From an uncultured Opitutales bacterium (lineage in GTDB: Bacteria > Verrucomicrobiota > Verrucomicrobiia > Opitutales > Intestinicryptomonadaceae), in contig CAKUIA010000001.1 of the NCBI GenBank assembly GCA_934660865.1, positions 173,226-205,225 on the forward strand: 32,000 nt of DNA, in the 5' to 3' direction. The position numbers were made by a program, and so were the translations under genes. This document shows positions 2,236-23,186 of the stretch, in pieces. How positions within the stretch are numbered: the first letter of the stretch is position 1; every line of letters starts with the position of its first letter. The notes beneath the pieces were generated by a model. That model worked only from the letters and a program-made list of their open reading frames with translations, was not told where the DNA came from and searched no databases.

Positions 2236-3234
2236 TTAAAATTCGTATTTTATAGAGGCCGCCCATGCGGTGTTTTCGCGTGTATTTAAAACCGTGCCCA
2301 AGTGGCCGTAGCCCGCGGTAACAGTAAGGTGCTCGTTTACAACGGCCGCAAGCCCTATCGTCCACCAGTCGCTTTCTTCGCCTACAAGCTGTTTGGAGCC
2401 CGCGCTTATCGGCGAATATTGGTTTATCTTTTGGCGGTATTCAAAGGCCGCAAAAAGCCAGTCGGTTATGCCGAATACCGCGTTGCCTTCGGCGGAAAAT
2501 TCGTATTTGCCGGAATAGCCCGTATAGCCCAAGTTTGAAGCGTCGGTAGCCCTGCCCGTAATCGACAAAATTAGAGGGTGCCCGTAAATCAAAAATGTTT
2601 TCGAAGCGGTTATGGTAAATTCAACGCCGTATTCCCTGTCGTAGCCCTTTTGCGAAAGCAGGCCGCCGAGGTTGTCGTTTATTTCGCCAATGCCGTCGTT
2701 ATACTTGCCATGAACGCCAACCGTTATTGCCGGCACAAAGCCTTCGTAAAAATCGTTTTCCTTTATCACGTTAAAGCGGGCGTTTACGGTGTGCAGCCAA
2801 ACGTCGTTGCGGTCTATATTTGCCCCCGCATACTGCAAAATGTCGCTTTGCAGCGAACCCGTGCCGAAGCGGCTTGCGTTGTACGAAAGCTCCAATTTGC
2901 CGAACAGCGTTTCGCTTACTACAAAGCTTTCAACATTCTTTTGGCGCGCGTTAACGTAGGTTGCGCCAAAACTTGGCAGGGCAAAATCGGTGCCTTCGGG
3001 CCCCGGGTTTACCAAATAGGCTATGGGGGTTAAAACCACGCCGCCTACGCCGTCTATTGTAAACAAAGGCAAAGGAGCTGCCTTTTGCGGCTTTGCGCTT
3101 TGCTGCGTTTTGTTTGCGGCCTCTTTGGGCTGGGCGGCTTCGGCGTTAATGGCGGCTTCGTTCGAGGCCGCATAGGTTATGGGAGAAACGGCAAGGATTG
3201 CCGCCAGTTTATATATTGCAGAAATTTGTTTCAT
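2236..3234 (-). CDS. Outer-membrane beta-barrel protein, family not assigned
   Basis: Sec signal peptide (MKQISAIYKLAAILAVSPITYA/AS), alternating beta-strand-like pattern, and a C-terminal ...SIKYEF ending in aromatic Phe (OMP/BAM signature). It lies 41 bp upstream of metY on the same strand. Confidence 0.7.
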   Translation of the reverse strand: MKQISAIYKLAAILAVSPITYAASNEAAINAEAAQPKEAANKTQQSAKPQKAAPLPLFTIDGVGGVVLTPIAYLVNPGPEGTDFALPSFGATYVNARQKNVESFVVSETLFGKLELSYNASRFGTGSLQSDILQYAGANIDRNDVWLHTVNARFNVIKENDFYEGFVPAITVGVHGKYNDGIGEINDNLGGLLSQKGYDREYGVEFTITASKTFLIYGHPLILSITGRATDASNLGYTGYSGKYEFSAEGNAVFGITDWLFAAFEYRQKINQYSPISAGSKQLVGEESDWWTIGLAAVVNEHLTVTAGYGHLGTVLNTRENTAWAASIKYEF

Positions 3235-3807: not shown

Positions 3808-4329
3808 ATGAGAATCTTTACCGCTATTTTGCTTATAATTTTGTGCATATTCCTGTTCGATTGCTCAACGCAGCCCAAGCTTGAGCCGCAGACCGCGCAA
3901 AATATAGACATAAGAAAATATATGGGGCTTTGGCACGAGGTTGCGCGCTCGAAAAACCTTTTTGAAAACAACATTGTAAGCGCCCAAGCCCAATATTCGC
4001 TAAATGCCGACAACACCGTAAGCGTGCTAAACACAGGCACGCGCAAAAACGGCATAACAAAAAACATAAAAGGCAAAGCCTACGCCCCAAACCTGCACGA
4101 CTTTTCAAAGCTAAGGGTTACATTTTTTTGGCCCTTTTACGGCGACTACAATATTTTGGCCGTAGGCGAAAACTACAACTGGGCGCTTGTAGGCGGCGAC
4201 AAATATTTGTGGATACTTTCCAGAACCATTCCCATACCCAGAAGCGAGCTAAACGACATTCTGCAAAAAGCAGCCTCTTTAGGCTACACAACCGACAACC
4301 TAATATACAACCAAAACACGGTAAAATAA
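3808..4329 (+). CDS. blc: Bacterial lipocalin (Blc-type outer-membrane lipoprotein)
   Basis: 173 aa with a signal peptide containing Cys. The motifs YMGLWHEVAR, FFWPFYGDYNILA and DKYLWILSRT match E. coli Blc (YLGTWYEIAR, FFGPFYGGYNVIA, DYLWILSRTP). Confidence 0.9.
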   Translation: MRIFTAILLIILCIFLFDCSTQPKLEPQTAQNIDIRKYMGLWHEVARSKNLFENNIVSAQAQYSLNADNTVSVLNTGTRKNGITKNIKGKAYAPNLHDFSKLRVTFFWPFYGDYNILAVGENYNWALVGGDKYLWILSRTIPIPRSELNDILQKAASLGYTTDNLIYNQNTVK

Positions 4330-4385: not shown

Positions 4386-5168
4386 TCACGGCAAACTTAC
4401 GGTTTTTTTTGTCAATCCAGAGAGTTTTTCTGCAATTATTTTTCCGTAATATAAATCGGGCATATCCGCCTTAAAGTACGGCTTTTTCAAAGCGATAGCC
4501 TTTTCTATACCGAAGGGAACATATGGTTCTATATGAATCTCCGACACCGACGAAAACGAATTTGCCATGTCTGCAATTTTTTGCAAACAAAACCCGCTGT
4601 CGTTTAAAGAAGGAATCATAGGGCACCGCAAGAAAATGCGAGTACATGCATATTCGGCATTTTCCGCAATAGCCTTGTCTATAAAATTAAGATTATCAAC
4701 AACTACATTTAACGGCTTGCCCGTATATTCAAAATGCTTTTTTTCGTCTAAAATTTTTATGTCAAAAAGCCATAAATCTACCAACGGCAAAAAGCGCGCA
4801 AGCACAGACTTTGCAGCATAACCGCTAGTTTCCACCGCCGTATGCACCCCGTGCGATTTTGCGCCTTCCAACAACTCAACAGCAAAATCGGGCGCAGCCA
4901 AAACCTCTCCACCCGAAAGCGTAAGCCCGCCAGCCGACGCATCGTAAAAATCCTTGTCTTTTAAGACTTCGTTTAAAACCGCCTTAGCAGACATTACTTT
5001 GCCTATAGGCGTTCCGTCGGGATACTGCCCTATTCCGAAATCCTGACTTTCTGGAGAATGGCACCAAATGCAGCGCAACGGACACCCCCTAAGGAACACA
5101 ACAGTGCGTATTCCGGGGCCGTCGTGGGTTGAAAATTTGTCTATTTTTAAGACAACCGCTTTTTGCAT
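4386..5168 (-). CDS. Glycyl-radical enzyme activating enzyme (radical SAM, short PflA type)
   Basis: Motifs STHDGPGIRTVVFLRGCPLRCIWCHSPE (CX3CX2C) and GGLTLSGGE. I chose Met29 of the tracked ORF (ATG at 5168) because it lies 5 bp after the GRE stop; the longer ORF would overlap the GRE by 79 nt. There is no extra ferredoxin-like Cys cluster. Confidence 0.9.
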   Translation of the reverse strand: MQKAVVLKIDKFSTHDGPGIRTVVFLRGCPLRCIWCHSPESQDFGIGQYPDGTPIGKVMSAKAVLNEVLKDKDFYDASAGGLTLSGGEVLAAPDFAVELLEGAKSHGVHTAVETSGYAAKSVLARFLPLVDLWLFDIKILDEKKHFEYTGKPLNVVVDNLNFIDKAIAENAEYACTRIFLRCPMIPSLNDSGFCLQKIADMANSFSSVSEIHIEPYVPFGIEKAIALKKPYFKADMPDLYYGKIIAEKLSGLTKKTVSLP

Positions 5169-5173
5169 GGACT

Positions 5174-7543
5174 CTACACAAGCCTGTGTCGTTCTATAAC
5201 CTCGTTTTGCCAACGTTCCGACAAAGCGACAAAACGCGCAGAAAAACCGCATACTTTCACCATTAAATCCATGTGGCGTTCGGGGTGCTTTTGCGCGTCT
5301 ATAAGGTCTTCTACAGAATTGCAGTTAGGCTGCAAAAGGTGCCCGCATTTCTTTGCAAAAACCCTAAATATGGCGGCAAAAGTCTCGGCACTCATAGCGT
5401 GCTTGTCGAAAGTAAGATTGGCGTTCGATGCAATCAGACATTCGTGAGGAAGCGTTGCGATAGAGTTCAAAACCGTTGTAATACCCTCTTTGCAGCGGTA
5501 TTCGCTGGGCGAAAATCCCTGCGCAAAGCGGTCGCCGTTGTACCTGCCGTCGGGAGTCGCCTTTGCACCGTTTCCCCAATACATAAACTCTCTATATATC
5601 AAAATCGCCAAGTGGTACGAATCGTTTTGGTCGGTCGTAAAACCCTCTATGTCGTCGTGAATTTTCCGCATCCACCACACCATTTGCTCGCACGACTTTT
5701 TCGAACCGTCGCCCCAATACGGAGCCTTTAACACCTCTGCGCGCAAACGTTGTCCGTCGTCGCCCTCCCAGTTGTTTCGAACGGCATTCAGCAGCTCTTT
5801 TATAGTGCAAATTTTTTTGTCGAAACAAACGTATTCTATTGCCAACAGCGAATCCACAACATTGCCCAAAAACGCCAAAGTGATTACGCGCGGGCGAGAT
5901 GCTACACCGCCGTCGGTAGTATCGCGTCGGCTTTCTATTGCACCTTTTAGACACATAGAATATACGGGATAAGGCGAAACCTTCGCAATTTGCCTTCCGT
6001 ACCTAGTATATTGCCCCATCGCACTCCTGAAAAACTTTATAAAATTCCTGTATGCAATGCGCTGCGCATCGCCCGCGCTCTTTGCGTTTTGCAGGGGTTC
6101 AATTTCTATTTGCGCCTCTTTTTCTAAATTTTTATCCTGGTATATTGAAAGCTCCAAAGTTCTTACAACGGAAACATAGTTTGCGTCGTCTACGTCCATT
6201 ACCGAATCTATGTAGCCATTCCAACAACCGCACGCAACATATTCCCTTGCATCCTCGTCAGAAAAACCGCAATTTTTGTAATATGGAATATGGCGGTCGT
6301 CGTTAAACAGCGCAAACACACAATGCCCCTTCATAAGCATATCTCCGATTTGCAGGAAATATTCTTGCGGCGAATTAGACGATATCCTGCAATGCAATTT
6401 TGGGAATACACAATCTGCGGCATAGTGCATTTCTATAAACATTTTTGTTAGGTCGTTATACACTACGTTCCCGTATTTGTCGCACCCGCCCAATGTTATG
6501 GGAATTTCCATTTCGTGGTCGTCGTATCCGTCTACCTTGCGCATACCGTCGTGATGGCAATCGGCGGTAATCATAAATTTTGCAATCAATTCCTTTGCCT
6601 GGGCTACAGTTAAACGCCCTTCGGCTATGTCGGCCTTGTACAGGCCATACAGCCAAGCATCGCAACGCCCCATTGCATACACAGAAACCCCGTCTATATA
6701 GCCGAGTATTTCGCGCATAAACCAAAGAGTGTTTAGCCCTTCGTAAAATGTTTTCGGCGGTTCCCACGGGCAACGCTTTGCGGATTGCGCAATCATATTA
6801 AAGTTATTGCGCTGCCTTTCGGTTAAAGACGGGTCTTTTAAACGCCTTTCTGCTTCGTCTGCAAACGAAAGCTGTATCTTATGCAGCGTTTTCAATCCTT
6901 CAATAGCTGTCTGCAACTCCTTTTTGCCCAATATATCGTCGCTTGGACAGCTCTTTAACGCTGCTTGAACATCGGCATAAACGCCGCCAAAACCCTTGCT
7001 TAAAATTGTTCTCGCAGGTGGAATATGGTGAATTGAATCGACAAAAGGCCCGCAACAAAGCGTGAGGCGTTCTTTATTGCGCCTCTTGAACACCTTAAAG
7101 GCTTCGTCGGGAATCAAGTTTTTTTCACGGTAAAAACGCGAACAAAGATGCCAAGCCATTCTGGCTGGGCGCGCTCCCGCCCAGCCACCGTTTACGCCAG
7201 CTTCAAAATAAAACGGCGATTCGGTAAAAATAAACGGGACAAAGTGCGTACGCATAGACTCGTACAATTTTTTGCGTATATCCAATGCATCATAATTGGG
7301 GTTGAGTTTTGTATACGCGATTATTTCGCTCTGAATTTTCTTTACGCTGTCTATTTGTCTAATGTCTTTTGCTTTACCGTGGCATTCGTCAGGATAAAAA
7401 GCGCGAAGCTGCTTGCGTAAAGCCGCATAGTCTTCGGAGCAATTTAAACTTGAAGCCCCAAGCACGCCATTGCCGGCAAAAACCGTTGCAGTTGCTGCCA
7501 TAGCCGTATTTTTTAAAAAATTTCTCCTCGATATCATATACAT
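5174..7543 (-). CDS. Glycyl radical enzyme (PFL-like family), substrate unknown, with an N-terminal twin-arginine signal peptide
   Basis: 789 aa. C-terminal glycyl-radical motif DLMVKVCGFSARF (Gly766), TPDGR motif, and Cys loop YVACGCWNG (Cys440, 326 residues before the Gly, as in PFL). The N-terminus MISRRNFLKNTAMAATATVFAGNGVLGASS matches the Tat consensus S-R-R-x-F-L-K followed by an h-region. Confidence 0.9.
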   Translation of the reverse strand: MYMISRRNFLKNTAMAATATVFAGNGVLGASSLNCSEDYAALRKQLRAFYPDECHGKAKDIRQIDSVKKIQSEIIAYTKLNPNYDALDIRKKLYESMRTHFVPFIFTESPFYFEAGVNGGWAGARPARMAWHLCSRFYREKNLIPDEAFKVFKRRNKERLTLCCGPFVDSIHHIPPARTILSKGFGGVYADVQAALKSCPSDDILGKKELQTAIEGLKTLHKIQLSFADEAERRLKDPSLTERQRNNFNMIAQSAKRCPWEPPKTFYEGLNTLWFMREILGYIDGVSVYAMGRCDAWLYGLYKADIAEGRLTVAQAKELIAKFMITADCHHDGMRKVDGYDDHEMEIPITLGGCDKYGNVVYNDLTKMFIEMHYAADCVFPKLHCRISSNSPQEYFLQIGDMLMKGHCVFALFNDDRHIPYYKNCGFSDEDAREYVACGCWNGYIDSVMDVDDANYVSVVRTLELSIYQDKNLEKEAQIEIEPLQNAKSAGDAQRIAYRNFIKFFRSAMGQYTRYGRQIAKVSPYPVYSMCLKGAIESRRDTTDGGVASRPRVITLAFLGNVVDSLLAIEYVCFDKKICTIKELLNAVRNNWEGDDGQRLRAEVLKAPYWGDGSKKSCEQMVWWMRKIHDDIEGFTTDQNDSYHLAILIYREFMYWGNGAKATPDGRYNGDRFAQGFSPSEYRCKEGITTVLNSIATLPHECLIASNANLTFDKHAMSAETFAAIFRVFAKKCGHLLQPNCNSVEDLIDAQKHPERHMDLMVKVCGFSARFVALSERWQNEVIERHRLV

Positions 7544-7835: not shown

Positions 7836-7868
7836 ATAAAAATGCGGGTTTTCCGAAGAAACCCGCAT
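7836..7868 (-). terminator. Rho-independent terminator after tRNA-Thr
   Basis: The minus strand reads ATGCGGGTT-TCTTCGGA-AACCCGCAT followed by TTTTATT, 13 nt after the tRNA 3' end. Confidence 0.8.
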
Positions 7869-12528: not shown

Positions 12529-13362
12529 TTAGTTTTCCCTTAAAAACTTTACGCACTTTTCCAAGTCTTTTAGGTTGTCTTTGTAGTTGGCTTCGTACTC
12601 GATAACAAAAAAGCCGTCGTAGCCCTGTTTGTCCAGCTCGGCAAGCATTGCCTTGTCGTTAAGCGCGCCCTCGCCCAGTGGAACGGGCTGGTTTTTTGCG
12701 TTTCCGAATTCGGCCTGGTCTTTAAAGTGAATGGAGCCTATGTTGCCTTTTAAAAGCTTAAGGGCGTCTACTGGGTTTATGCCGCAGCGCGACCAGTGCC
12801 CTACATCGGGGTTTGCCATGACGTTGTCGAAAGGCCTTGTGTATTTATTCATAACTTCGGGGTCGAAATACTGGTTTAGGCTGTCTTTTGCGTGGTGGTG
12901 CAAACACATTTTTACGCCGTATTTTTTGCCGAATTTATCCCATACGGGGAATCTCGAAACGGGGTCTTCGGTGATTATGCGCTCAATGCCGAATTCGTTT
13001 GCAAAGCGGCAGTATTTTTCCACATCGGCGTCTTTCGAGGTTCTTTTTACGCCGAAGCTTACCATTTTAAGCTTTGCGTCGGCAAAAAGCTTTTTCACAA
13101 ACGCCTTTTGCTCGGCGGTCATATTAACGTCGAATTTCGCGTTGCCGAATTTGTCGGAAATTCTCTGGTTCGGATAACATTCAACGCCGTCTATATCAAG
13201 ACCCTTTATCCTGTTTACGGTTTCTTCAAGCGTATAGCAGTTCATTGAAAACGCCTGAATTGCAATTTTGCGGTGCTTTTTTGCGGGAGATTCGCCATGC
13301 GCAAACGCCGACGAAATAGCAAAGGCCAACAACAGTATTAACGATATAATCTTCTTAGTCAT
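12529..13362 (-). CDS. Secreted xylose-isomerase-like TIM-barrel protein (sugar phosphate isomerase/epimerase family)
   Basis: 277 aa with a Sec signal peptide (LLLAFAISSAFA/HG). The overall pattern (IAIQAFS..., HHHA, HFKD, VIEYE) resembles the AP-endonuclease-2 / xylose-isomerase-like TIM-barrel family. The assignment rests on motif recall only. Confidence 0.6.
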   Translation of the reverse strand: MTKKIISLILLLAFAISSAFAHGESPAKKHRKIAIQAFSMNCYTLEETVNRIKGLDIDGVECYPNQRISDKFGNAKFDVNMTAEQKAFVKKLFADAKLKMVSFGVKRTSKDADVEKYCRFANEFGIERIITEDPVSRFPVWDKFGKKYGVKMCLHHHAKDSLNQYFDPEVMNKYTRPFDNVMANPDVGHWSRCGINPVDALKLLKGNIGSIHFKDQAEFGNAKNQPVPLGEGALNDKAMLAELDKQGYDGFFVIEYEANYKDNLKDLEKCVKFLREN

Positions 13363-13463: not shown

Positions 13464-15140
13464 ATGTATATGAAAAACACAGCAAAAACATTTTTCTTTT
13501 TAGCCTGCCTGCTCGGTTGCATAAGCGCGTTTGCCGAAGCAAAAGCGTCGATAGACTCCGTTAAGCTAAACTATGCGCAGGCAAAAAGCCTGTATGCAAA
13601 AGTGGTGAAAGTTTCGGATTTCGGCGCCATTGCAAACGACGGCAAAGACGATACCAAAGCCATAAACGCCGCCCTTGAAAAGGCGGCCGAACTTGCCAAA
13701 AGCGAACCCGTTTGCCTGCTTTTCGAAAAAGGCAGCTACGACATTGCGCCCGAAAACAACGAGTTTTACGCATTAAAATTAAAGAACGCAAAAAACATTT
13801 TAATAGACGGCAACAACGCAACTTTAATAAGGCACAGGGGCGCCGTATTTTTCTTAAAAGACTCCTCCAACATTGCGGTTGCAAATTTTAAAATTAAAAA
13901 CGCCGAACTGGCCATAACCGGAGGCGTGGTTGTAAATAACGGCGACGGATTTTTCGACTGCAAAATAGCCGAGCAATTCCCCGCCTACGAAAAACCCGTT
14001 TTGGCTGTTATAGGCTACGACGAAAAACACGACTGCTACAACGTGAAAGTTGCCGACATTTACCAGCTGGACAGCACCGTTAACGCGAAGAAAATCGCCG
14101 ACAAAACTTTGCGCGTGTTTTTAAACAAGGGCAAAAAAGCGCCGCCTTTAAATTCAACCGTATTGCTGCGCTACGCCGTTTACGGCCCGCAGGCGGTTAT
14201 GTCGGAAAAATGCAAAAATGCAAGGTTCTACAACCTTACAGTATTGGAACACTCGGGAATGGGCATTTTGGCGCTGAACACCGAAAACATTTATGTGGAC
14301 AATTTCAACGTAAAAACAAGCGACAAAAAATATTGGATGGCGGCCACCGCCGACGGGCTTCACTTTAAAAACTGCAAAGGCAAAGTGTTTATATACAATT
14401 CCTATTTCGAAAAACTCGGCGACGACGCATTGAACATTCACCAAATGTACCTTACCGTTAACAAACGTATTTCGCCCAGAAAAATAGAGGTTTTCCATGC
14501 AAGGAATTTAAGCGAAAAGCAAAGGCACCCCGCAAAGGAAAGACCGTTCCCCTACTACCTTGTTCCCGACAAGGGCGACACCATTGTTTTCGGCGAAAGG
14601 GACAACTACCTAAGGCTGGGCTCGCCAAACAGGATTGTTGGCGCTCAGATTTTGCACGACAAAGGCTCGGCAATTTTCGAGTTCGAAAACGACCTGCCCG
14701 AACACGTCGACTACGGGCTGACTGTTGCAAACATTTCGCAAGACCCGTATACGGAAATAAAAAACTGCACCGTAAGGGGCAACAGGGCAAGGGGTTTCCT
14801 TATAAAGGTTTCGGAGGCCGTAATAGAAAACTGCACGTTCATACGCCCGACAATTAGCGGCATATTGCTTGAAAACGACGCCAGCTACTGGTACGAGGGC
14901 ATTAGGGTTAAAAACCTGCTTATAAAAAACTGCAAGTTCGACAACTGCGGAACAAGATGGAACAGGAACAAGCTGCCGCCCGCAATTTGGGACGATGCCT
15001 CTTTTTGCAAGGGAGTTCCCAAAAACGGCTATGTAAACGAAAACGTTAAAATAGAAGACTGCGAATTTATAAACTGCAATGTTTTGCTGCAGCAGACAAA
15101 GAACGTAGCGGAAAAAAACAACAACTACGAGGAGGACTAA
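13464..15140 (+). CDS. Secreted or lipoprotein right-handed beta-helix protein (pectate-lyase fold; probable glycoside hydrolase or polysaccharide lyase)
   Basis: 558 aa. Signal peptide with lipobox LLGC, the N-terminal motif VSDFGAIANDGKDDTKAINAALEKA typical of pectate-lyase-3 type domains, and repeated NC-x-V/F-x-N PbH1-like turns near the C-terminus. Confidence 0.65.
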   Translation: MYMKNTAKTFFFLACLLGCISAFAEAKASIDSVKLNYAQAKSLYAKVVKVSDFGAIANDGKDDTKAINAALEKAAELAKSEPVCLLFEKGSYDIAPENNEFYALKLKNAKNILIDGNNATLIRHRGAVFFLKDSSNIAVANFKIKNAELAITGGVVVNNGDGFFDCKIAEQFPAYEKPVLAVIGYDEKHDCYNVKVADIYQLDSTVNAKKIADKTLRVFLNKGKKAPPLNSTVLLRYAVYGPQAVMSEKCKNARFYNLTVLEHSGMGILALNTENIYVDNFNVKTSDKKYWMAATADGLHFKNCKGKVFIYNSYFEKLGDDALNIHQMYLTVNKRISPRKIEVFHARNLSEKQRHPAKERPFPYYLVPDKGDTIVFGERDNYLRLGSPNRIVGAQILHDKGSAIFEFENDLPEHVDYGLTVANISQDPYTEIKNCTVRGNRARGFLIKVSEAVIENCTFIRPTISGILLENDASYWYEGIRVKNLLIKNCKFDNCGTRWNRNKLPPAIWDDASFCKGVPKNGYVNENVKIEDCEFINCNVLLQQTKNVAEKNNNYEED

Positions 15141-15232: not shown

Positions 15233-17365
15233 TTAGTAGACAAAAAGCATTTCGCAATACTTGGGCAGCGGCCACAATTCGTTGTCGACTTCGCCTTCGA
15301 GCGTATCGGCAATTTTGCGGACTTGAGCCATTGCCTCGAGCAGCTTTACGGGAGCTTCGCCCTTCTTTATGAGGGCTTCAAGCTTGTCGGCCGCCAAAAC
15401 CAAAGCGTTAAGCCTTGTGTCGATTTTCGACGCCAGCGTTTTTACCGCCGAATTCTTTGTGCCCAAAACCTTTTCGGCTTCGAGCGACTTGCCCAGCTTT
15501 TCCAAATAGGAAACAACCGCGGGAATTATGTGCGTGCGCGAAATCTTCAAAGTCAACCCCGCTTCTATTCCGACTTTGCGGGTGTATTCCTCCAAAAATA
15601 CTTCGTAGCGCGACTTTAATTCCACCGAATTGAAGACTCCGTACTTTTCGAAAAGCGCAACGTTCTTGGGGTCTACCAAGGGCTTGATTGCCTCGGGGGT
15701 TGTGCGCAAATTGGGCAACTTGCGCTTTGCAGCCTCCTTCTTCCAGGCTTCGCCGTAACCGTCGCCGTTGAAGATAATCTTCTTGTGCTTTTTGATTATC
15801 GTCGAAAGAATCTTTTGCAATTCGTCGTGGAAGTTTGCGCCTTTTGGCAGATTTTCGAGCATTGTTGCGATTTCGTCGAAAGCTTCGGCAACGGCGGTAT
15901 TCAAAACAATGTTCGGGCTTGCGCAGCTTTGCGAAGAGCCTGCGGCTCTAAACTCGAACTTGTTGCCCGTAAAGGCAAATGGGCTTGTTCTGTTTCTGTC
16001 GGTTGCGTCGCAGGGCAATACGGGCAAAATGTCGGCTCCGATTTTCAAAATCTTGCCGTGCTTGCTCGACTTTGCTCCGCCGTTTTCGATTTGCTCTACA
16101 ATGTCGGCGAGCTGTTCGCCCAAGTACATCGAGATTATTGCCGGCGGCGCTTCGTTTGCGCCCAAACGGTGGTCGTTGCCAGCGCCCGCTATGGCCGAGC
16201 GCAACAAGTCGGCGTGCCTGTCGACAGCCTGTATTACCGCGCAAAGGCTTGTAAGGAATATCGCGTTTTGGTGTGGGTCGTCGCCGGGGTTAAGCAAATT
16301 GATGTCGCCAACCGAAATGGACCAGTTGTTGTGCTTGCCCGAGCCGTTTACGCCGTCGAAGGGCTTTTCGTGAAGCAGGCAGGCAAAGCCGTGCTTGTCG
16401 CCTATCCTCTTTAGCGCGTCCATAATAAGCATATTGTGGTCTACCGCCAAGTTAAGCTCTTCAAACATCGGGGCAATTTCGAACTGCGCGGGGGCAACTT
16501 CGTTGTGCCTCGTCTTTGCGGGTATGCCGAGCCTCCACAATTCGTGGTCCAACTCGCTCATAAACGACAAAATTCTGGGTTTAATTGCACCGAAGTAGTG
16601 GTCTTCCAGTTGTTGGTGCCTTTGCGGGGGAGCGCCGAAAAGCGTTCTGCCCGTTTGCATTAGGTCGGGGCGTTGTACATAAAAACGCTTGTCGATTAAA
16701 AAGTACTCCTGTTCGGCGCCCAAGGTTACCTTTGCGTTGCCCTCGAAAGTTTTGCCGAAGCACTTTAGCAGGCGCTTTGCCTGTGCGCCCAAAACCTGCA
16801 TCGAGCGCAGCAAGGGGGTTTTCTTGTCGAGAACCTCGCCCGTGTACGAGCAAAACGCCGTGGGAATATACAAGGTTGCAACACCGTATTCGCGCTTGAT
16901 AAAGGCGGGGCTTGTCGGGTCCCATGCGGTGTAGCCGCGGGCTTCGGCCGTAGAGCGCAAACCGCCCGAGGGGAAACTGGAGGCATCGGGTTCGCCCATT
17001 ATAAGGTTTTTGCCCGAAAATCTTGCAATAACTTCGCCGCCGCCGACCGGTTCAAGGAAGGAGTCGTGCTTTTCGGCGCTGGAACCCGTAAGGGGCATAA
17101 ACCAGTGCGTGTAGTGGGTAGCTCCCCTCTTTATCGCCCAGCTTTTCATTGCGTGGGCAACATCGTCGGCAATCGAAGAATCTATTGCCTTGCCCGTGTT
17201 CATTGTTTCCATCAACTTCTTGAAAACGGGCTTGGGGAGGTATTCCGACATCGCCTTGATGTTGAATACGTCGCAGCCGTAGTCTTCTATGAAGTTGCCT
17301 GCCGCCGCCGTTTCGGGAACGGCGGTGTCGGCAATATTTGCCAGTGCTATTTTTCTGCTATTCAT
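15233..17365 (-). CDS. Glutamine synthetase, type III
   Basis: 710 aa. The N-terminal region FNIKAMSEYLPKPVFKKLMETMNTGKAIDSSIADDVAHAMKSWAIKRGATHYTHWF and the ~700-aa length are characteristic of GSIII (Bacteroides/cyanobacterial GlnN type). Confidence 0.92.
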   Translation of the reverse strand: MNSRKIALANIADTAVPETAAAGNFIEDYGCDVFNIKAMSEYLPKPVFKKLMETMNTGKAIDSSIADDVAHAMKSWAIKRGATHYTHWFMPLTGSSAEKHDSFLEPVGGGEVIARFSGKNLIMGEPDASSFPSGGLRSTAEARGYTAWDPTSPAFIKREYGVATLYIPTAFCSYTGEVLDKKTPLLRSMQVLGAQAKRLLKCFGKTFEGNAKVTLGAEQEYFLIDKRFYVQRPDLMQTGRTLFGAPPQRHQQLEDHYFGAIKPRILSFMSELDHELWRLGIPAKTRHNEVAPAQFEIAPMFEELNLAVDHNMLIMDALKRIGDKHGFACLLHEKPFDGVNGSGKHNNWSISVGDINLLNPGDDPHQNAIFLTSLCAVIQAVDRHADLLRSAIAGAGNDHRLGANEAPPAIISMYLGEQLADIVEQIENGGAKSSKHGKILKIGADILPVLPCDATDRNRTSPFAFTGNKFEFRAAGSSQSCASPNIVLNTAVAEAFDEIATMLENLPKGANFHDELQKILSTIIKKHKKIIFNGDGYGEAWKKEAAKRKLPNLRTTPEAIKPLVDPKNVALFEKYGVFNSVELKSRYEVFLEEYTRKVGIEAGLTLKISRTHIIPAVVSYLEKLGKSLEAEKVLGTKNSAVKTLASKIDTRLNALVLAADKLEALIKKGEAPVKLLEAMAQVRKIADTLEGEVDNELWPLPKYCEMLFVY

Positions 17366-17399
17366 ATTTTTGTCCTTTCAAAATTTGTCTCTTTAAAAA

Positions 17400-18731
17400 C
17401 TATTCGTTCGAGAAGATTTGGAATCCGTTGTAGGCCTCCATTGCGTGTTCGGAAATATCCAAGCCCTTCAATTCGTCGCTCTTGCTTACCCTTATACCCA
17501 TTGTCTTTTTCATTGTGTAGAAGATTGCAAAGCTTATCGAAACGCTTGCCGCAGCCACTGCAACTATGCCTATTATTTGCGGTAAAAGCTCGTGGTCGGG
17601 CGAGAACAGGCCAACGGCCAAAGTTCCCCAAACACCGCATACCAAGTGTACCGAAAGCGCGCCAACGGGGTCGTCGATTTGCAGCTTGTCGAAAGCGTAT
17701 ACCGCAATTACAACTATCACACCCGAGATTGCGCCGATTAGGCACGAAGCTTGAATCGATACGCAGTCGGCAGAAGCCGTAATACCTACCAGGCCAGCCA
17801 AGCAGCCGTTAAGAACCATCGACAAGTCGGGCTTGCCTTGCGCTATCCACGAAGTGAACATTGCAGCCATTAAGCCCGCCGCGGCCGACAAAGCCGTTGT
17901 TGTAAATACGTAGGCCACCATTACGGGATCGGCGCTAAATACCGAAGCTCCGTTAAAGCCGAACCAACCGAACCACAGCAAAAATACGCCCAATGTTGCA
18001 AAGCCCAAGTTGCTGCCGGGAATTGCGTGAGCGGTCTTGCCCACATACTTGCCGATTCTCGGCCCTACCAAAATTGCGCCTACTAAGGCCGCCCAACCGC
18101 CTACGCTGTGCACGAATGTAGAACCCGCCAAGTCGTAGAAGCCGAGCTTTGCCAGCCAGCCGCCGCCCCAGCCCCACGAGCCAATAAGCGTGTAGCCGAA
18201 CGCCGCATAGATTATTGCAAAGATTATGTATGCGCTAAACTTTATCCTTTCGGCAACCGCACCCGAAACAATGGTTACGGAAGTTGCGGCAAACATGCCT
18301 TGAAAAATAAAGTCCGTCCAATAGCCGTAGTTGCCGCCGTTATAGGCAATGGCTCCCAACGCGCCCTCGGGCGAGGAAACGCCCAAGCCGATAAAGCCCA
18401 GCACGCCGTTTATAAGCCAGGAATCTTTCGGATACATAATGCTAAAACCGATTACCACATAGGTAAGCAAACCTATTGCCACCGTGATAACGTTTTTAGA
18501 CAGAATGTTTACGCTGTTCTTTGCGCGGCATAAACCCGTTTCTACCAGTGCAAACCCGGGGTGCATTGCAAAAACCAAAATTGCGCCCAAAAGTATCCAC
18601 AAGTTGTTAATTGTAAACATTTCGTTCGACACAGCGGGCGCTGCAGCCTCGGCGTTTGCCGCCACCTCTTGCCCGAATGCGGAACACGCACCCATCAGTG
18701 CGCCTATATATAACAATGTCTTTAGTCTCAT
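17400..18731 (-). CDS. amt: Ammonium transporter (Amt family)
   Basis: 443 aa with a signal peptide and 11 TM helices. Conserved motifs include FVHSVGGWAALVGA and the second pore His in SVHLVCGVWGTL. Confidence 0.95.
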   Translation of the reverse strand: MRLKTLLYIGALMGACSAFGQEVAANAEAAAPAVSNEMFTINNLWILLGAILVFAMHPGFALVETGLCRAKNSVNILSKNVITVAIGLLTYVVIGFSIMYPKDSWLINGVLGFIGLGVSSPEGALGAIAYNGGNYGYWTDFIFQGMFAATSVTIVSGAVAERIKFSAYIIFAIIYAAFGYTLIGSWGWGGGWLAKLGFYDLAGSTFVHSVGGWAALVGAILVGPRIGKYVGKTAHAIPGSNLGFATLGVFLLWFGWFGFNGASVFSADPVMVAYVFTTTALSAAAGLMAAMFTSWIAQGKPDLSMVLNGCLAGLVGITASADCVSIQASCLIGAISGVIVVIAVYAFDKLQIDDPVGALSVHLVCGVWGTLAVGLFSPDHELLPQIIGIVAVAAASVSISFAIFYTMKKTMGIRVSKSDELKGLDISEHAMEAYNGFQIFSNE

Positions 18732-18752
18732 AACCGTAAATTGTTTGAATTT

Positions 18753-19094
18753 TTAACCTATTGCCTCGCGCCCCGTTTCGCGCGTTCTTACGCGAATACA
18801 CTCCTCGACGTTCAATACAAAAATTTTGCCGTCGCCGATATGGTCGGTTTGGGCGCCTTTTATAATAGACTCTATGGTCTGGTCGAGATACTCGTCGTTA
18901 ACGGCGATTTCCAAGCGTACTTTTTTAAGGAGGTTTACCTCTCTAACATTTCCGCGATAGTTTTCGCTATAACCCTTCTGCCTTCCGCAGCCGAGTGCGT
19001 TGGTAACCGATAGCCTGTATATTTCGTTCTTGAAGAGTTCCTTTTTTACCTCTCCAAGTTGTTCGGGCTTAATGTATGCTATTATTAGTTTCAT
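18753..19094 (-). CDS. glnK: P-II nitrogen regulatory protein (GlnK-type, linked to amt)
   Basis: 113 aa from the internal ATG at 19094 (MKLIIAYIKPEQL...GCGRQKG...IGDGKIFV...RVRT). The 49-codon upstream extension of the tracked ORF would run through the sigma-54 promoter. Confidence 0.9.
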   Translation of the reverse strand: MKLIIAYIKPEQLGEVKKELFKNEIYRLSVTNALGCGRQKGYSENYRGNVREVNLLKKVRLEIAVNDEYLDQTIESIIKGAQTDHIGDGKIFVLNVEECIRVRTRETGREAIG

Positions 19095-19125
19095 TTTTTT
19101 GGAATGATGAGATACTTTCTTGATA

Positions 19126-19141
19126 AGCATAAAGCGTGCCA
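19126..19141 (-). promoter_or_regulatory. Sigma-54 (-24/-12) promoter of glnK-amt-GSIII
   Basis: The minus strand reads TGGCAC-GCTTT-ATGCT. The GG/GC spacing is exactly that of the TGGCAC-N5-TTGC consensus, and it lies 32-47 nt upstream of the glnK ATG. Confidence 0.8.
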
Positions 19142-19275
19142 GTTTTTTTGCGCATTTTTGCAAAAAGACGGCAAAACCCGAAAACCCCGCATAAATACTA
19201 AGACCTACAAGAATGTATGCACCTGCAAAATTGGCGCGCACAAAAAAGTAGTCGGCATAAGGCCTATTTTTGGCC

Positions 19276-19331
19276 TTTGTATGCTACAAATTTGTTGCAA
19301 CTACATTTTTGTGCTACTACAAATTTGTAGT
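19276..19331. promoter_or_regulatory. Upstream activator sequence: three tandem 16-bp palindromic sites
   Basis: GCTACAAATTTGTTGC (19283-19298), ACTACATTTTTGTGCT (19300-19315) and ACTACAAATTTGTAGT (19316-19331, a perfect palindrome), preceded by a TTTGTA half-site at 19276. The site centres lie 150-183 bp upstream of the -24 element. Confidence 0.7.
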
Positions 19332-19348
19332 TCGGTAAAATATACAAC

Positions 19349-19377
19349 AAAAAAGGCGGTGCATTTAAGCACCGCCC
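19349..19377 (-). terminator. Rho-independent terminator after the dapF-like gene
   Basis: The minus strand reads GGCGGTGC-TTAAAT-GCACCGCC followed by TTTTTTG, 25 nt after the stop at 19401. Confidence 0.85.
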
Positions 19378-19400
19378 GACAACAATCCAATTTACACAAA

Positions 19401-20261
19401 TTACATATTGGGAATGTCTTGCGTTAAAACGCTATCGAACATTTCGTATACCCCCACTTTTGTAGCGGGCCCGCTCATTGTTATAGAATAGTCGGGTTTT
19501 ATAGAAATTTTCAAAATTCCCCCCGGCATATGGACAGTTATGTCGCCCTCGCATAAGCCAAGTTTGTAGGCAACGCTTGCCGCCGCGCTAGAGCTTGAAC
19601 CCGAAGCCAAGGTATAGCCTGCGCCCCTCTCCCAAATTTGTATGTTAATGTTGTTTTTGTCTACAACCTCCAAAAACTGCACATTTGTTCTGTTGGGGAA
19701 TTTTTTCGTCATATTCTCCAAAACGGGGCCAATTTTGTGCGCAATTTCCGACGAAACCTTTTTCATGGGCACAACGCAATGCGGGTTGCCCACCGTTGCA
19801 CAGCAGTATTTATAGGCAACGCCGTCTATTACAACCTCCTGGTTTATAACTTCACCCTTTACTCCGTTTACGGGAATCTTGTCGGCGTCGAAGCTTACGC
19901 GCCCCATTTCAACGGTAATGTAGTCGCCGTTTTGCGAAACCGTGCACGAAACTACGCCGCCTAAGGTGTCTACCGTAAAGGGTTTGTTTTCCTCTACGCG
20001 CCCCGTGTCGAACAAATAGCGCGAAAATATCCTAAGGCCGTTGCCGCTTTTTTCGGCCTCGCTGGCGTCGGGGTTTAAAATGCGCAATTTAAAGTCGGCC
20101 TTGTCGCTCTTTTCGGGGCCGAACAAAATTCCGTCGCTTCCCAAGCCGAAATTTCTGTGGCAGATTTTAACAACGTCCAAGCCCTGCGGGCAAACGGGGC
20201 AGTCTTTGGGGTCTAAAACCAGATAGTCGTTGCCCAATGCGTGGTATTTATAAAACTTCAT
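19401..20261 (-). CDS. dapF: Diaminopimelate-epimerase-family protein (DapF fold) with both catalytic Cys positions occupied by Ser
   Basis: 286 aa from the ATG at 20261 (MKFYKYHALGNDYLVLD), 13 nt after the dapL stop. DapF motifs GNDY, GSDG, NPDASEAEKSGNG, GNPH and ERGAGYTLASGSS are present. The two active-site Cys of canonical DapF (..CGNG.., ..ACG[ST]G..) are Ser here. Confidence 0.8.
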   Translation of the reverse strand: MKFYKYHALGNDYLVLDPKDCPVCPQGLDVVKICHRNFGLGSDGILFGPEKSDKADFKLRILNPDASEAEKSGNGLRIFSRYLFDTGRVEENKPFTVDTLGGVVSCTVSQNGDYITVEMGRVSFDADKIPVNGVKGEVINQEVVIDGVAYKYCCATVGNPHCVVPMKKVSSEIAHKIGPVLENMTKKFPNRTNVQFLEVVDKNNINIQIWERGAGYTLASGSSSSAAASVAYKLGLCEGDITVHMPGGILKISIKPDYSITMSGPATKVGVYEMFDSVLTQDIPNM

Positions 20262-20274
20262 TTTTGTATCCTTG

Positions 20275-21513
20275 TTAAAATTCGAATTTCGACTGCGACA
20301 TTCTCTTTTTGATTTCGGCAACAACGGCCTTTTCGGCCTCTGCGCCGTGCGCTTCGAAGGTTACCGAAAACCTTACATACGGGCCTTCGTCGTCCCACGG
20401 GACAGTGCTTATAAGGTGCTGCGAAATCATCCACTGCGAAAAATCCTCGCCCGATTTAAACTTTGTTTTGCTCCCGTCTTTGTCTACCGCGGCTTTTGGG
20501 GCTTTCATATAAAGGAAAAATCCCGCCTTGGGCTTTTTGGGGCAAAAGCCCAAATCTTTTAGCACGCCCACAAGCAAATCCATACGCCTTGAATATTTGG
20601 CGGCAATTTGCCTTGTAATAAGCGGGTTTTCAAGCCCCTTGGCTCCCGCAAGCTGTATGCCCAAAAACTGCCCTGAATCGCAGTTGTCCTTAACGTCGCC
20701 GTAGGCTTTTACAAGCAGGGGGTTGCCGCAAACCCAGCCTATTCTCCAGCCCGTCATATTGTGGCTTTTCGACATCGAATGCAGCTCAAGAGCCACGTCT
20801 TTGGCGCCTTGAACCTGAAATATCGAAAGCGAAGGCCCTTCGAACGTTAAAGACGCGTACGCGGCGTCGGAAATTATTATTATGGAATTTTCCTTTGCAA
20901 ACTTTACAAGCTTTTCGAAAAATTCAAGAGTTGCGCTTGCGCCCGTGGGGTTGTTCGGATAGTTTACAACCATAACCTTTGCCCTTTTCCTTATGTCTTG
21001 GGGAATGGAATCCAAGTCGGGCAAAAAGTTGTTTTCTTCGGAAAGCTTTACGTTGTATACTTCGCCGCCCAGATATTTTGCGTGCGTGCCGAAAACGGGG
21101 TAGCCGGGAATTGTCATTATAACAACGTCTTTTGGGTTTATAAAGCAATAGGGCAAAATGCTCAGGGCCGCCTTGGAACCTATCGAGTGTATGATTTCGG
21201 TGTCGGGATCTAGCTGTACGCCGAAAACCGCCTTCATATAGGAAGCGGCTGCAACCTTAAAATCCCTGCCGCCGTTGTCGGCATAGCCGCGGTTTGCGGG
21301 GTTTTTCGCCGCCGCATACAAAGCCTCTACAACTTCGGGGAAAGCCATTTCGTCGGGCTCGCCTACGCCCATGTCTATAAGTTCAACATCGGGCTTGGCG
21401 GCTTTGGCCGCGCGCTTTGCCCTCTTGATTTTTTCGAACTTGTAAATTTCGTTCGTTTTGCCGTAGTTTACTCCGCCTATTCTTTCGGCGAACATATTTT
21501 GAAGGAATGTCAT
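20275..21513 (-). CDS. dapL: Class I/II PLP aminotransferase, probable LL-diaminopimelate aminotransferase
   Basis: 412 aa with IDMGVGEPD, NYPNNPTG and the PLP-lysine motif SMSKSHNMTGWRIGW. The function is inferred from family resemblance and adjacency to the DapF-family gene. Confidence 0.65.
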   Translation of the reverse strand: MTFLQNMFAERIGGVNYGKTNEIYKFEKIKRAKRAAKAAKPDVELIDMGVGEPDEMAFPEVVEALYAAAKNPANRGYADNGGRDFKVAAASYMKAVFGVQLDPDTEIIHSIGSKAALSILPYCFINPKDVVIMTIPGYPVFGTHAKYLGGEVYNVKLSEENNFLPDLDSIPQDIRKRAKVMVVNYPNNPTGASATLEFFEKLVKFAKENSIIIISDAAYASLTFEGPSLSIFQVQGAKDVALELHSMSKSHNMTGWRIGWVCGNPLLVKAYGDVKDNCDSGQFLGIQLAGAKGLENPLITRQIAAKYSRRMDLLVGVLKDLGFCPKKPKAGFFLYMKAPKAAVDKDGSKTKFKSGEDFSQWMISQHLISTVPWDDEGPYVRFSVTFEAHGAEAEKAVVAEIKKRMSQSKFEF

Positions 21514-21539
21514 TTTTGTACGAGTGTTTTGATTGTTTG

Positions 21540-23111
21540 TTATTTATATAAAAGCGGGTCTATATTCAGTTTTTTTATTTTATAGAGTATAATGCGCGGC
21601 GTGGTCTTTAAATATTTTGCGGCCGCGCTTGCGTTGCCGTTGTTTTTCTTTAGCGCGTTTATTATTATTTCGCGCTCGAAGTTGCCGACAAGCGTTTCGT
21701 AGTCGGTATTTTCGGGCTCTGCGCCGTCGCCCGCAAAGGCGGGGGCCGACGCCGTCGACAAATCGGTCTGCAAAGTCGGCGGCAAATTGTAGCCGCTAAT
21801 TACGTTGTCGGAAGTGTTTAAAACCGCATATTCCATGCAGTTTTCAAGCTCCCTTACGTTGCCCGGCCAATAGTATGAAGTCAGCATATTTATGGCCGTT
21901 GTGGAAATTCTCGAAACGCTTTTGTTGTGTATTAAATTGTATTTTTCCAAAAAGTGCTCGGCTAAAGACGTAATGTCGCACTTGCGGTTTCGCAGTGCGG
22001 GCAGATATATCGGGAATACGTTTAGGCGGTAGTACAAGTCTTCCCTAAAAGTTCCCTCCTTAATCATTTCCTCCAAATTGCGGCTTGTTGCGGCCAATAT
22101 GCGCACGTCTACCCTGCGCTCCTGGCTCGAGCCTACCCTAAAAAATGTGTGCTCTTGAATGAAGCGCAAAAGTTTTAACTGCATAAACAAGGTTAAGTCG
22201 CCGACTTCGTCCAAAAACAAAGTTCCCGTGTCTGCAACTTCAACCAAGCCCGCCTTGCGGTTTACAGCCCCCGTAAACGAGCCCTTTTCGTGGCCGAACA
22301 ATTCGCTTTCTATAAGGCCTTCGGGCAATGCCGCGCAGTTTATGGAAACAAACGGTTTGTCTTTTCTAAGCGAATTTTTCTGGATTGCGCGCGCAACAAG
22401 CTCTTTGCCCGTGCCCGATTCGCCCCTTATTAAAACCGTAGCGTTCGAAGAGGCCACTTTGAAAATCATCGAATACACCTTTTTCATATTCGCGCAATTC
22501 CCCACAATTTCGGTGGGGCGCAGCTTGTTTTCAAGCTCAAGGTGCAAACGCTTGTTTTCGCTTATCAGCTTTTCTCGCTCTTCAACTTCGGCGTAGGCTG
22601 CGTAAACGGCGTCGGCCATAATGTTGGCTATAATTTCAAGCAGGCGCAAATCGGCGTCTAAATCGGTGTTTTCGTCGGTTTTGCGGTCTATGCTTATGGT
22701 GCCAATTACGTCGTCCATATATATAATGGGAACGCAAATAAAGGCCACGTTTGTTTCGCCCGAGCGCGCGCCCGTGCGGTTTAAAAAGCCTTTTTCCTTC
22801 GAAACATCGGCAATTACGCGCGGCTTGCCCTCTAGCGCAACCATGCCCGTAATGCCCTCGCCTATGCGGTAGGTGCCGCGCTCGGCCTCGCGCTTGCTAA
22901 GCCCCTGCGAGGCCTCTATTACAAGCATATCGCCCTCGCGCAGAGCCACAGTGCCCCTAAGCAGACCCATTTCGGTATGCAATGTATCCAGAATCTGCGA
23001 AATCATCTCCTGCACCGACGATCTCTTTGCCACAAGGTGGCTTATTTTCTTTAATACTTCAATGCTAACGTGTAGGTGGTTGTCCATAAGCTGGTGTTTG
23101 TTTTGCGGCAC
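21540..23111 (-). CDS. Sigma-54-dependent transcriptional activator, GAF - AAA+ - Fis-type HTH (NifA-like architecture)
   Basis: N-terminal GAF-like domain (no receiver domain). AAA+ core with Walker A GESGTGKE, the sigma-54 contact loop ESELFGHEKGSFTGA, Walker B LFLDEVG, and WPGNVRELEN. C-terminal HTH NASAAAKYLKTTPRIILYKIKKLNI. The tracked start is GTG at 23111; an alternative ATG is at 23087. Confidence 0.92.
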   Translation of the reverse strand: MPQNKHQLMDNHLHVSIEVLKKISHLVAKRSSVQEMISQILDTLHTEMGLLRGTVALREGDMLVIEASQGLSKREAERGTYRIGEGITGMVALEGKPRVIADVSKEKGFLNRTGARSGETNVAFICVPIIYMDDVIGTISIDRKTDENTDLDADLRLLEIIANIMADAVYAAYAEVEEREKLISENKRLHLELENKLRPTEIVGNCANMKKVYSMIFKVASSNATVLIRGESGTGKELVARAIQKNSLRKDKPFVSINCAALPEGLIESELFGHEKGSFTGAVNRKAGLVEVADTGTLFLDEVGDLTLFMQLKLLRFIQEHTFFRVGSSQERRVDVRILAATSRNLEEMIKEGTFREDLYYRLNVFPIYLPALRNRKCDITSLAEHFLEKYNLIHNKSVSRISTTAINMLTSYYWPGNVRELENCMEYAVLNTSDNVISGYNLPPTLQTDLSTASAPAFAGDGAEPENTDYETLVGNFEREIIINALKKNNGNASAAAKYLKTTPRIILYKIKKLNIDPLLYK

Positions 23112-23170: not shown

Positions 23171-23186
23171 CGTTTAATTTTCCGGT

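Follow-up and report, generated by a model that had tools for sequence, protein, structure and literature searches.

We analysed a stretch of 32,000 nucleotides (hereafter the window) from an uncultured Opitutales bacterium (contig CAKUIA010000001.1, assembly GCA_934660865.1), in which the gene for a 789-residue glycyl radical enzyme (GRE) opens with a predicted twin-arginine translocation (Tat) signal peptide and is followed by the gene for a radical S-adenosylmethionine (SAM) activating enzyme (Table 1). Our sequence comparisons suggest that this N-terminus is a working Tat signal peptide and that the GRE is quite probably exported to the periplasm. GREs and their radical SAM activases are textbook cytoplasmic enzymes, with a need for SAM, a low-potential reductant and strict exclusion of oxygen. 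The component families are thus known, and what appears new is that they would be placed outside the cytoplasm, following an export logic that holds for GRE and activase alike. A first-pass annotation of this DNA had offered real Tat export as one option for the leader, and the comparative evidence favours it because signal peptides occur family-wide, leaderless sister clades begin at the predicted mature start, one lineage carries a fusion of a general secretory (Sec) signal, a glycoside hydrolase family 16 (GH16) domain and the GRE, the leaders of the activases are of Tat type only, and the leaders of the two partners are complementary.

The window protein has the features of the GRE superfamily, namely the barrel and glycine radical domains, a radical glycine, a catalytic cysteine and a cognate activase. 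Indeed, the frame beginning MYMISRRNFLKNTAMAATATVFAGNGVLGASS was recovered at its full length, Cys440, the TPDGR motif at residue 663 and Gly766 within VKVCGFSARF each lie where the first-pass annotation had placed them, and the Pfam scan for which it had called returned PF02901 with 253.6 bits and PF01228 with 66.7 bits. When aligned to CutC (structure 9f3w), C440 coincides with the cysteine of the G-C-V-E loop and G766, in KVCGFSA, with the radical glycine motif RVAGYSAYF. Among 35 family members with 54–70% identity, G439, C440 and W441 are invariant, as are C765, G766, F767, S768 and A769 and more than 100 further positions. The closest solved relatives by sequence are CutC, an archaeal PFL2, glycerol dehydratase and HplG (E-values of 1e-49 to 1e-43), and the identity to solved GREs amounts to 18–20%. 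An AlphaFold2 model built on the 35 relatives reached a mean predicted local distance difference test (pLDDT) score of 87.7 and a predicted template modelling (pTM) score of 0.88, and Foldseek matched it to glycerol dehydratase (1r8w), CutC, PflD and propanediol dehydratase with template modelling scores of 0.77–0.80.

The function of the enzyme could not be taken over from a characterised GRE. The NCBIfam equivalog cut-offs were missed widely (227.7 bits against 678 for TIGR01774, 197.6 against 1100 for HypD and 189 against 1050 for CutC), and the G-C-V-E cysteine loop of the 1,2-eliminases is absent, the window GRE reading G-C-W-N. The assignment of a known GRE function was therefore dropped, and the window protein is, as far as its sequence tells, an intact GRE outside every characterised functional class; the altered loop suggests a chemistry unlike that of any characterised GRE. 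Compared to the PFL2-class 1,2-eliminases (CutC, B12-independent glycerol dehydratase, propanediol dehydratase, HypD, IslA/IseG and PflD/YbiW), it shares PF02901 and PF01228, the barrel fold, the aligned radical glycine and catalytic cysteine and a dedicated radical SAM activase encoded next door, whereas the general-base Glu of their cysteine loop is replaced by Asn. Moreover, these eliminases reside in the cytoplasm or in protein microcompartments, whereas the window GRE bears a Tat signal and its family Sec or Tat signals. The enzyme also differs from PFL, which is itself cytoplasmic, since it lacks the double-Cys loop and scores 46 bits on TIGR01255.

The leader has the complete anatomy of a signal peptide: the RR motif sits in the n-region, the h-region is rich in Ala, Thr and Gly and only weakly hydrophobic, and the c-region (G-A-S-S) is made of small residues. 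The exact S-R-R-x-F-L-K motif reported at first pass is seen at residues 5–11, and the Tat model TIGR01409 (TAT_signal_seq; cut-off 16.7 bits) scored positive with 19.7 bits (E-value 8e-4) on the whole protein and with 24.1 bits (E-value 3e-5) when given the first 60 residues. As read from the sequence, 25 uncharged residues follow K11. The best 12-residue hydropathy of the window leader is 1.28, which falls in the low range of the Tat-type leaders of the family (mean 1.66) and below the Sec-type ones (mean 2.42). In the AlphaFold2 model, residues 1–34 have pLDDT values below 50 and the fold starts at residue 36. Furthermore, among the open reading frames (ORFs) of at least 60 residues in the six frames of the window, this is the only one with an N-terminus of the form [ST]RRx[FL].

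The in-frame methionines of the GRE are residues 1, 3, 15, 97 and 129; Met97 is the next one after the h-region, as previously stated, to which we add that Met15 lies inside the leader. Translation from Met15 (ATG at 7501) or later would leave the leader untranslated and reduce it to a gene-start artefact. However, across 13 lineages the arginine codons of the RR motif vary synonymously (AGG, AGA, CGA, CGT, CGG and CGC) while S/T-R-R-x-F is kept, which indicates that the upstream part of the leader is translated and under selection. In addition, a stop codon stands 4 codons upstream of Met1, so that the frame opens just ahead of the leader, Met97 (the next methionine after Met15) falls within conserved sequence, and a promoter-like site lies upstream of Met1. 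The start-codon artefact was rejected on the conserved motif with its synonymous changes and on the upstream stop, and we regard it as scarcely credible. A microcompartment targeting peptide was likewise rejected, given the signal-peptide anatomy and the lack of shell genes in the annotated related loci: no shell-protein Pfam family was found among the called genes of those loci, and the window operon is flanked by a resistance-nodulation-division (RND) pump and a lipocalin (the Pfam scan of the window for shell proteins covered ORFs of at least 150 residues).

The leader is not a peculiarity of the window. We surveyed the 120 best representatives of 90%-identity clusters (54–98% identical to the window GRE), and about 95% of them carry an N-terminal signal peptide, either of Tat type (RR or RK) or of Sec type; the signal peptide that the first-pass annotation wished to see followed in orthologues is thus kept across the family. 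Tat-type leaders account for about 44 of the 120, 22 with RR and the remainder with RK or RQ at the same position in a T-R-x-x-F-I-G context, Sec-like or lipobox-like signal peptides for about 64, a signal peptide plus GH16 fusion for one, and truly leaderless proteins for about two. RR is present in every relative more than 63% identical to the window GRE. The two kinds of leader differ as established for the two pathways, Tat leaders being less hydrophobic and longer than Sec leaders: in the family, the means of best 12-residue hydropathy given above differ with p = 1e-14, and the lengths are 36 residues for the Tat type vs 31 for the Sec-like type.

Note that about half of the Tat-type leaders have R-K in place of R-R and that near-identical proteins can differ in this respect (P0339 vs P0341). 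In these bacteria, R-K thus seems to be a regular natural variant of the twin-arginine motif, which matters for signal-peptide prediction. Rarer forms of the motif are R-Q, C-R and R-N-R (P0061, P0050 and the GRE starting at 8164 of locus L143).

At 90% identity the family amounts to hundreds of clusters, drawn from metagenomes of the human gut, the rumen and digesters, and it collapses to one or two clusters among 1.84 billion 50%-identity representatives. Its source labels are Kiritimatiellae, Lentisphaerae, Victivallales and Opitutales (gut and rumen bacteria), and all 53 genome loci that hold it belong to gut, rumen or faecal metagenome-assembled genomes (MAGs) with these labels or that of Verrucomicrobia; several genomes have at least two family paralogues. 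The window DNA itself is matched collinearly, at 92–97% identity, by a MAG from the human gut (Hadza) that bears the label ‘uncultured Opitutales bacterium’. The next relatives are sister clusters of about 750 residues and 30–45% identity, and those longer than 600 residues whose N-termini were read all start at the first conserved helix (x-L-R-x-E-L-x-x-Y), i.e., at the predicted mature N-terminus of the window GRE. A metagenome clade at 33–38% identity also starts at this helix, and its adjacent activases are leaderless too. These leaderless sister clades suggest that the signal peptide is an addition to a cytoplasmic ancestor in one gut and rumen clade. Within the family, truly leaderless members form a minority with 45–60% identity (P0024, P0048, L028, L037, L040, L042, L045, L054, L090, L094, L095 and L097–L099), and no adjacent activase was found at any of the loci among them (L028 to L099 in this list); such members may be paralogues that stay in the cytoplasm and depend on an activase from another locus.

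An independent pointer to a location outside the cytoplasm comes from protein P0051 (1038 residues), in which a Sec signal peptide and a GH16 domain (62 bits) are joined by a short linker to a GRE that starts at its mature N-terminus. The GRE's own leader is missing, and the junction coincides exactly with the predicted mature start of the GRE. Polysaccharides outside the cytoplasm are the substrates of GH16 enzymes. Misassembly was rejected as the source of this fusion, since the same continuous ORF occurs on contigs of several independent samples, and the exact position of the junction together with the absent leader also disfavours it. The GRE family is linked to carbohydrates a second time by P0123 (909 residues, 41% identical), a leaderless, cytoplasmic relative whose first helix is followed by an inserted GH2-type sugar-binding domain (PF02837, 31.7 bits; cut-off 28).

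The second partner of the window system, the activase, starts 5 bp past the GRE stop, as already described (TAG, 5 nt, then ATG). It scores 219 bits on TIGR02494 (cut-off 174), has the motifs C29-x3-C33-x2-C36 and GGE, and bears neither a leader nor an auxiliary-cluster (ferredoxin-like) insert; it is of the same short type as PFL-AE, with 260 residues and a single CX3CX2C cluster. A leader provided by an upstream start was considered and discarded, as the in-frame stretch MRFFCAFCRFVGTLAKRGYRTTQACVES overlaps the GRE gene and is not signal-like, and as stop codons close it just upstream of the same MQKAVV start in the orthologues of loci L047 and L059. The GRE and activase genes look like one unit, a two-gene operon, because they lie between a terminator-like hairpin that ends the upstream RND operon and another one behind the activase, with a promoter-like site ahead of the GRE. 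The promoter-like site (9 of 12 consensus matches plus a TG extension) is weak, 4 such sites being seen vs 6 expected by chance.

Unlike the window activase, many of its relatives carry leaders of their own. Among the best 120 relatives of the activase of locus L017 (8392..9249), 117 have a Tat-type leader (RR or RK) and none a Sec-type leader, and the three short proteins that remain look like truncated gene calls. The best 120 relatives of the window activase divide into about 62 leaderless and about 55 with a Tat-type leader, again with no Sec-type leader. At the GH16-fusion locus, the activase (L002 9169..10014) begins MENVTRKAFLAGAASLAVAPLLGA, ahead of the conserved start. With working leaders, these activases would be radical SAM enzymes that are exported. 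Export of an Fe-S protein requires the folded state and thus Tat, and a cofactor-free GRE can take either route. Leaders that are Tat-only on activases and Tat or Sec on GREs therefore form the pattern that real export predicts, and not the one expected of a meaningless hydrophobic N-terminus. We regard these activase leaders as the strongest of the new evidence.

The leaders of adjacent partners were also found to be complementary. The activase adjoins the GRE in about half of the family loci, and adjacent GRE-activase pairs were scored and counted per lineage (about 21 lineages). A leaderless activase adjoins a Tat-type GRE in 13 lineages and a Sec-type GRE in none, and a leader-bearing activase adjoins a Tat-type GRE in 4 lineages and a Sec-type GRE in 4 or 5; Sec-type GREs thus pair only with leader-bearing activases. 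The asymmetry gives a Fisher p of 0.005–0.012, which is indicative only as the lineages are not independent, and the leader classes of L008, L016, L038, L046 and L067 were assigned by eye (upstream Met codons or GTG starts). Six pairs from loci fetched later served as a test of the rule (L143, L145, L146, L147, L148 and L149), of which five fit clearly and L146, where the GRE start is unclear, is ambiguous. This rule has a simple logic: with an activase that remains in the cytoplasm, the GRE has to be folded when it leaves and has to take along either its radical or the activase itself, and export of the activase allows the GRE to leave unfolded.

For the window pair, we propose that the 86-kDa GRE precursor would fold in the cytoplasm, where the leaderless activase would abstract a hydrogen from Gly766 with cytoplasmic SAM and reductant. 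TatABC would then carry the folded, radical-bearing GRE across the membrane, the leader would be cut after about Ser31 or Ser32, and the mature enzyme would work on a glycan-derived substrate in the anoxic periplasm of this gut bacterium, a strict anaerobe. As each turnover restores the radical of a GRE, one activation could serve many turnovers in an oxygen-free periplasm. Export itself we consider quite probable, as said, and for the exact order (activation, then export) we see slightly less than even odds. The cytoplasmic activation that the first-pass annotation took for granted is likely for the window GRE but not the only option, as Sec-type GREs accompany Tat-type activases in many relatives, a combination that suggests activation outside the cytoplasm in those lineages.

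The same relatives lend some weight to a different order, in which Tat exports the window GRE and the radical is made outside by a leaderless activase that hitch-hikes on the folded precursor, perhaps with bound SAM. Sec-exported proteins cross the membrane unfolded, and extracytoplasmic activation seems the rule elsewhere in the family, where Sec-type GREs accompany Tat-leader activases (L002, L051, L068 and L145). Moreover, hitch-hiking on Tat is established for the partner subunits of hydrogenase-2 and DMSO reductase, what looks like the reverse case is met at L139 (a leaderless GRE of a second family beside a Tat-leader activase, in an operon of exported proteins), and at L147 a leaderless activase shares its operon with a NapG/NapH-like module, a possible periplasmic electron supply that recurs at L150. 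Nevertheless, no GRE-activase complex stable enough for co-export is known, PFL-AE acting catalytically and transiently, and no periplasmic source of SAM is known; it is also unclear why half of the related activases gained their own leaders if co-export worked well, and cytoplasmic activation explains the complementarity rule equally well. We thus consider hitch-hiking rather unlikely in the window, although it is the main rival of the proposed order.

The companions of the leaderless activase in the L147 operon are an aldo-keto reductase that has an Fe-S domain at its C-terminus, a NapG-like poly-ferredoxin and a membrane Fe-S protein resembling NapH. RR leaders are present on both the reductase and the ferredoxin, and L150 repeats the module with RR on the reductase only and a degenerate ferredoxin leader. 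NapG and NapH identity was not accepted for the L147 proteins, as their scores of 55 and 53 bits against cut-offs of 179 and 213 amount to a resemblance only. The arrangement suggests that such a module could carry electrons to a periplasmic radical system or to a carbonyl product of the GRE reaction. As for the translocase, tatA and tatC were not found within the 32-kb window, and a search of 1.2 Mb of related loci found them in one species only (L017 and its metagenome copies); in L017 (gut MAG UMGS1035), tatA/B (PF02416) and tatC (PF00902, 170 bits) lie 0.8 kb downstream of a GRE-activase-OmpA/Pal cluster.

A role of the leader other than export has to be weighed against the findings on both partners. 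The vestigial Tat motif of NarG binds NarJ, and by analogy the window leader could hold the GRE at the cytoplasmic face of the membrane or bind a chaperone, the enzyme staying in the cytoplasm. This would agree with the established location of all characterised GREs and activases (cytoplasmic or microcompartment-enclosed), with the cytoplasmic location of SAM and flavodoxin, with a window activase that has no leader, with the remnant Tat motifs known on non-exported proteins and with the few family members that have no leader at all. However, the window leader is complete in its n-, h- and c-regions and is no remnant, and relatives swap it for a Sec signal, a lipobox-like leader or a secreted GH16 module, which would be senseless for a cytoplasmic hold-back. 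Furthermore, activases gain Tat-type and never Sec-type leaders, the positive-inside rule places the body of the protein outside the cytoplasm, and the two-gene operon offers no candidate chaperone gene. Such a role is therefore judged unlikely.

Far less probable still is an exported GRE that is never radical outside the cytoplasm, e.g., with a non-radical role such as glycan binding or as a waste or inactive form. A radical that survives export and works in the periplasm would be unprecedented, and the GRE of one lineage is joined to a GH16 module that binds or cleaves glycans, both of which would suit this idea; but Gly766, Cys440 and the more than 100 other positions would hardly be invariant among the 35 members in a protein without radical chemistry, the activase adjoins the GRE in about half of the loci, and the export signals gained by activases would be pointless.

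Several considerations weigh against export and against activation before it. To our knowledge, no exported GRE or exported radical SAM enzyme is known, which sets a low prior for export. That neither option of the first-pass annotation had been described agrees with our search in the full text of 8 million papers and preprints, which returned no paper on an exported GRE and nothing on exported, periplasmic or signal-peptide-bearing GREs or GRE activases; most subscription journals lie outside this coverage, hence this is no proof of absence. The mature GRE is rich in cysteines, the catalytic one included, and these would be endangered by a thiol-oxidising system in the periplasm. The family seems to include cases of activation outside the cytoplasm, which weakens the argument for activation first. 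The truly leaderless family members indicate that the chemistry has no need for the periplasm, the pairing statistic comes from about 21 lineages that are not phylogenetically independent, and the window itself holds no clue to the substrate.

The gene neighbourhoods of the relatives are more informative about the substrate. The genes next to family members encode GH78, GH43, GH106, GH39 and GH2 enzymes, esterases and metallophosphatases, most of them with Sec or Tat leaders, and because these neighbourhoods carry carbohydrate-active enzymes, the GRE substrate is probably a glycan or a glycan fragment. As a separate observation, metallophosphoesterases (PF00149) with RR leaders stand beside GRE or activase genes at three unrelated loci. 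The same neighbourhoods bear on whether the signal peptides might lead to an internal membrane-bound compartment instead of a conventional periplasm, as in anammox planctomycetes, where signal peptides direct proteins to the anammoxosome. The family is confined to Kiritimatiellae, Lentisphaerae and Opitutales-labelled MAGs, which belong to the Planctomycetes-Verrucomicrobia-Chlamydiae (PVC) group with its unusual cell plans, and a compartment would ease the question of SAM and electron supply. Yet none is known in these lineages, and the enzymes encoded alongside are common secreted glycoside hydrolases whose leaders are of the same kinds, which makes this destination extremely improbable.

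In a broader and more speculative reading, which we consider possible but on the whole unlikely, a complete radical-enzyme system would operate outside the cytoplasm: GREs would be delivered by Sec or Tat, Fe-S activases by Tat and possibly SAM-bound, electrons would maybe come through NapG/NapH-like proteins, and the glycyl radical would be made or used there on complex glycans. Such a system would do for anaerobes what the oxidative polysaccharide-cleaving enzymes do for aerobes. A possible reaction would then be the radical elimination of a glycosidic, sulfate or phosphate substituent, and the window pair, with its Tat-leader GRE and leaderless activase, would be the variant that activates first and exports later.

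Comparison with known exported systems helps to delimit what may be new. The window leader shares the S/T-R-R-x-F-L-K motif with TorA, DmsAB, the periplasmic [NiFe] hydrogenases and NapA, and the predicted logic is the same, since the catalytic state is finished in the cytoplasm and exported folded, one signal is enough for a pair and the Fe-S partner always takes Tat. In contrast to these Tat-dependent cofactor enzymes, the cargo here would be a protein-backbone radical, or its Fe-S/SAM maker, and not a metal cofactor; no gene for a dedicated proofreading chaperone is visible, and RK stands for RR in about half of the leaders. The sulfatases and their anaerobic sulfatase-maturating enzymes (anSMEs; AtsB and ChuR) offer another parallel, in which a radical SAM enzyme modifies one residue of a partner that works outside the cytoplasm, both systems being common in gut glycan degraders. 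The anSME, however, remains cytoplasmic and provides the unfolded sulfatase with a stable formylglycine before export, whereas the GRE modification is a reactive radical that needs a folded protein, and many GRE activases bear export signals.

Specialists in radical enzymology and in protein export would be surprised by such an arrangement. Export signals on both partners of a large conserved family would move glycyl radical chemistry to the cell envelope, and they raise the questions of whether Tat can carry a protein-based radical across the membrane, whether a radical SAM enzyme can work without cytoplasmic SAM and flavodoxin, and what anaerobes gain from radical chemistry on substrates too large for import. 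The glycan contexts and the fusions with GH16 and the GH2-type domain (GH2_N) point to polysaccharide-processing enzymes of a new class, encoded by gut microbes that have been little studied.

Table 1. Positions of the features discussed, in the window (strand given) and in related loci or protein sets (L and P numbers)
Feature	Position	Strand	Remark or basis
GRE gene	5174..7543	(-)	789 residues + stop codon; PF02901 + PF01228
Predicted Tat signal peptide, codons 1–32, MYMISRRNFLKNTAMAATATVFAGNGVLGASS	7448..7543	(-)	TIGR01409
Twin-arginine consensus S-R-R-N-F-L-K, codons 5–11	7511..7531	(-)	S/T-R-R-x-F kept in 13 lineages
Cys440 codon, predicted thiyl-radical cysteine	6224..6226	(-)	Loop G439-C440-W441-N442
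Gly766 codon, predicted glycyl radical site, VKVCGFSARF	5246..5248	(-)	Aligned to CutC
Radical SAM GRE-activating enzyme, 260 residues	4386..5168	(-)	TIGR02494, PF04055, PF13353
Activase codons 29–36, C-x3-C-x2-C, radical SAM [4Fe-4S] cluster motif	5061..5084	(-)	Sequence
Promoter-like site, 35 nt upstream of GRE start codon	7578..7605	(-)	Consensus scan
Terminator-like hairpin after activase, end of GRE-activase operon	4270..4287	(-)	
Terminator-like hairpin after upstream RND efflux genes	7842..7868	(-)	Separates RND genes from GRE operon
GH16-GRE fusion P0051	L002 6021..9137; also L003, L004, L005, L043		
Tat-leader activase sets	P0271–P0390; about 55 of P0391–P0510		Relatives of the L017 activase; relatives of the window activase
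tatA/B + tatC	L017 10021..11369		
NapG/NapH-like module beside activase	L147 7244..10004; L150 1..2461		
RR-leader metallophosphoesterases	L002 10425..11396; L141 1059..2333; L147 284..1774		
Further GRE families	L127 689..3028; L141 6719..9004; L139 13379..15688; L143 2247..4496 and 8164..; L146 2015..4210; L068 87..941		

Two more GRE families, about 24–27% identical to the window GRE, occur in the same operons, with W-G-C-F-E-Y cysteine loops and R-V-(A/C)-G-W glycine motifs. Some of their members have Tat-like leaders (VKITRKGFIAG and MTRNRFLRGL), and the one at L139 is the leaderless GRE already mentioned.

Elsewhere the window holds housekeeping genes for nitrogen assimilation, the RND pump and a small number of secreted proteins. 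Next to the activase end of the operon lie a gene for a DUF3034 protein with a signal peptide, 2236..3234 (-), and one for a lipocalin-like lipoprotein, 3808..4329 (+). At 5–6 kb from the GRE lie a xylose-isomerase-like TIM barrel with a Sec signal peptide, 12529..13362 (-), and a protein that combines a signal peptide with a right-handed beta-helix of the pectate-lyase or GH28 type, 13464..15140 (+), a link to the GRE being established for neither of the two secreted proteins. Finally, the nitrogen-assimilation cluster, 15233..27653 (-), encodes a type III glutamine synthetase, AmtB, PII, a diaminopimelate (DAP) epimerase, an aminotransferase, a sigma-54 activator with a GAF domain and the large subunit of glutamate synthase.

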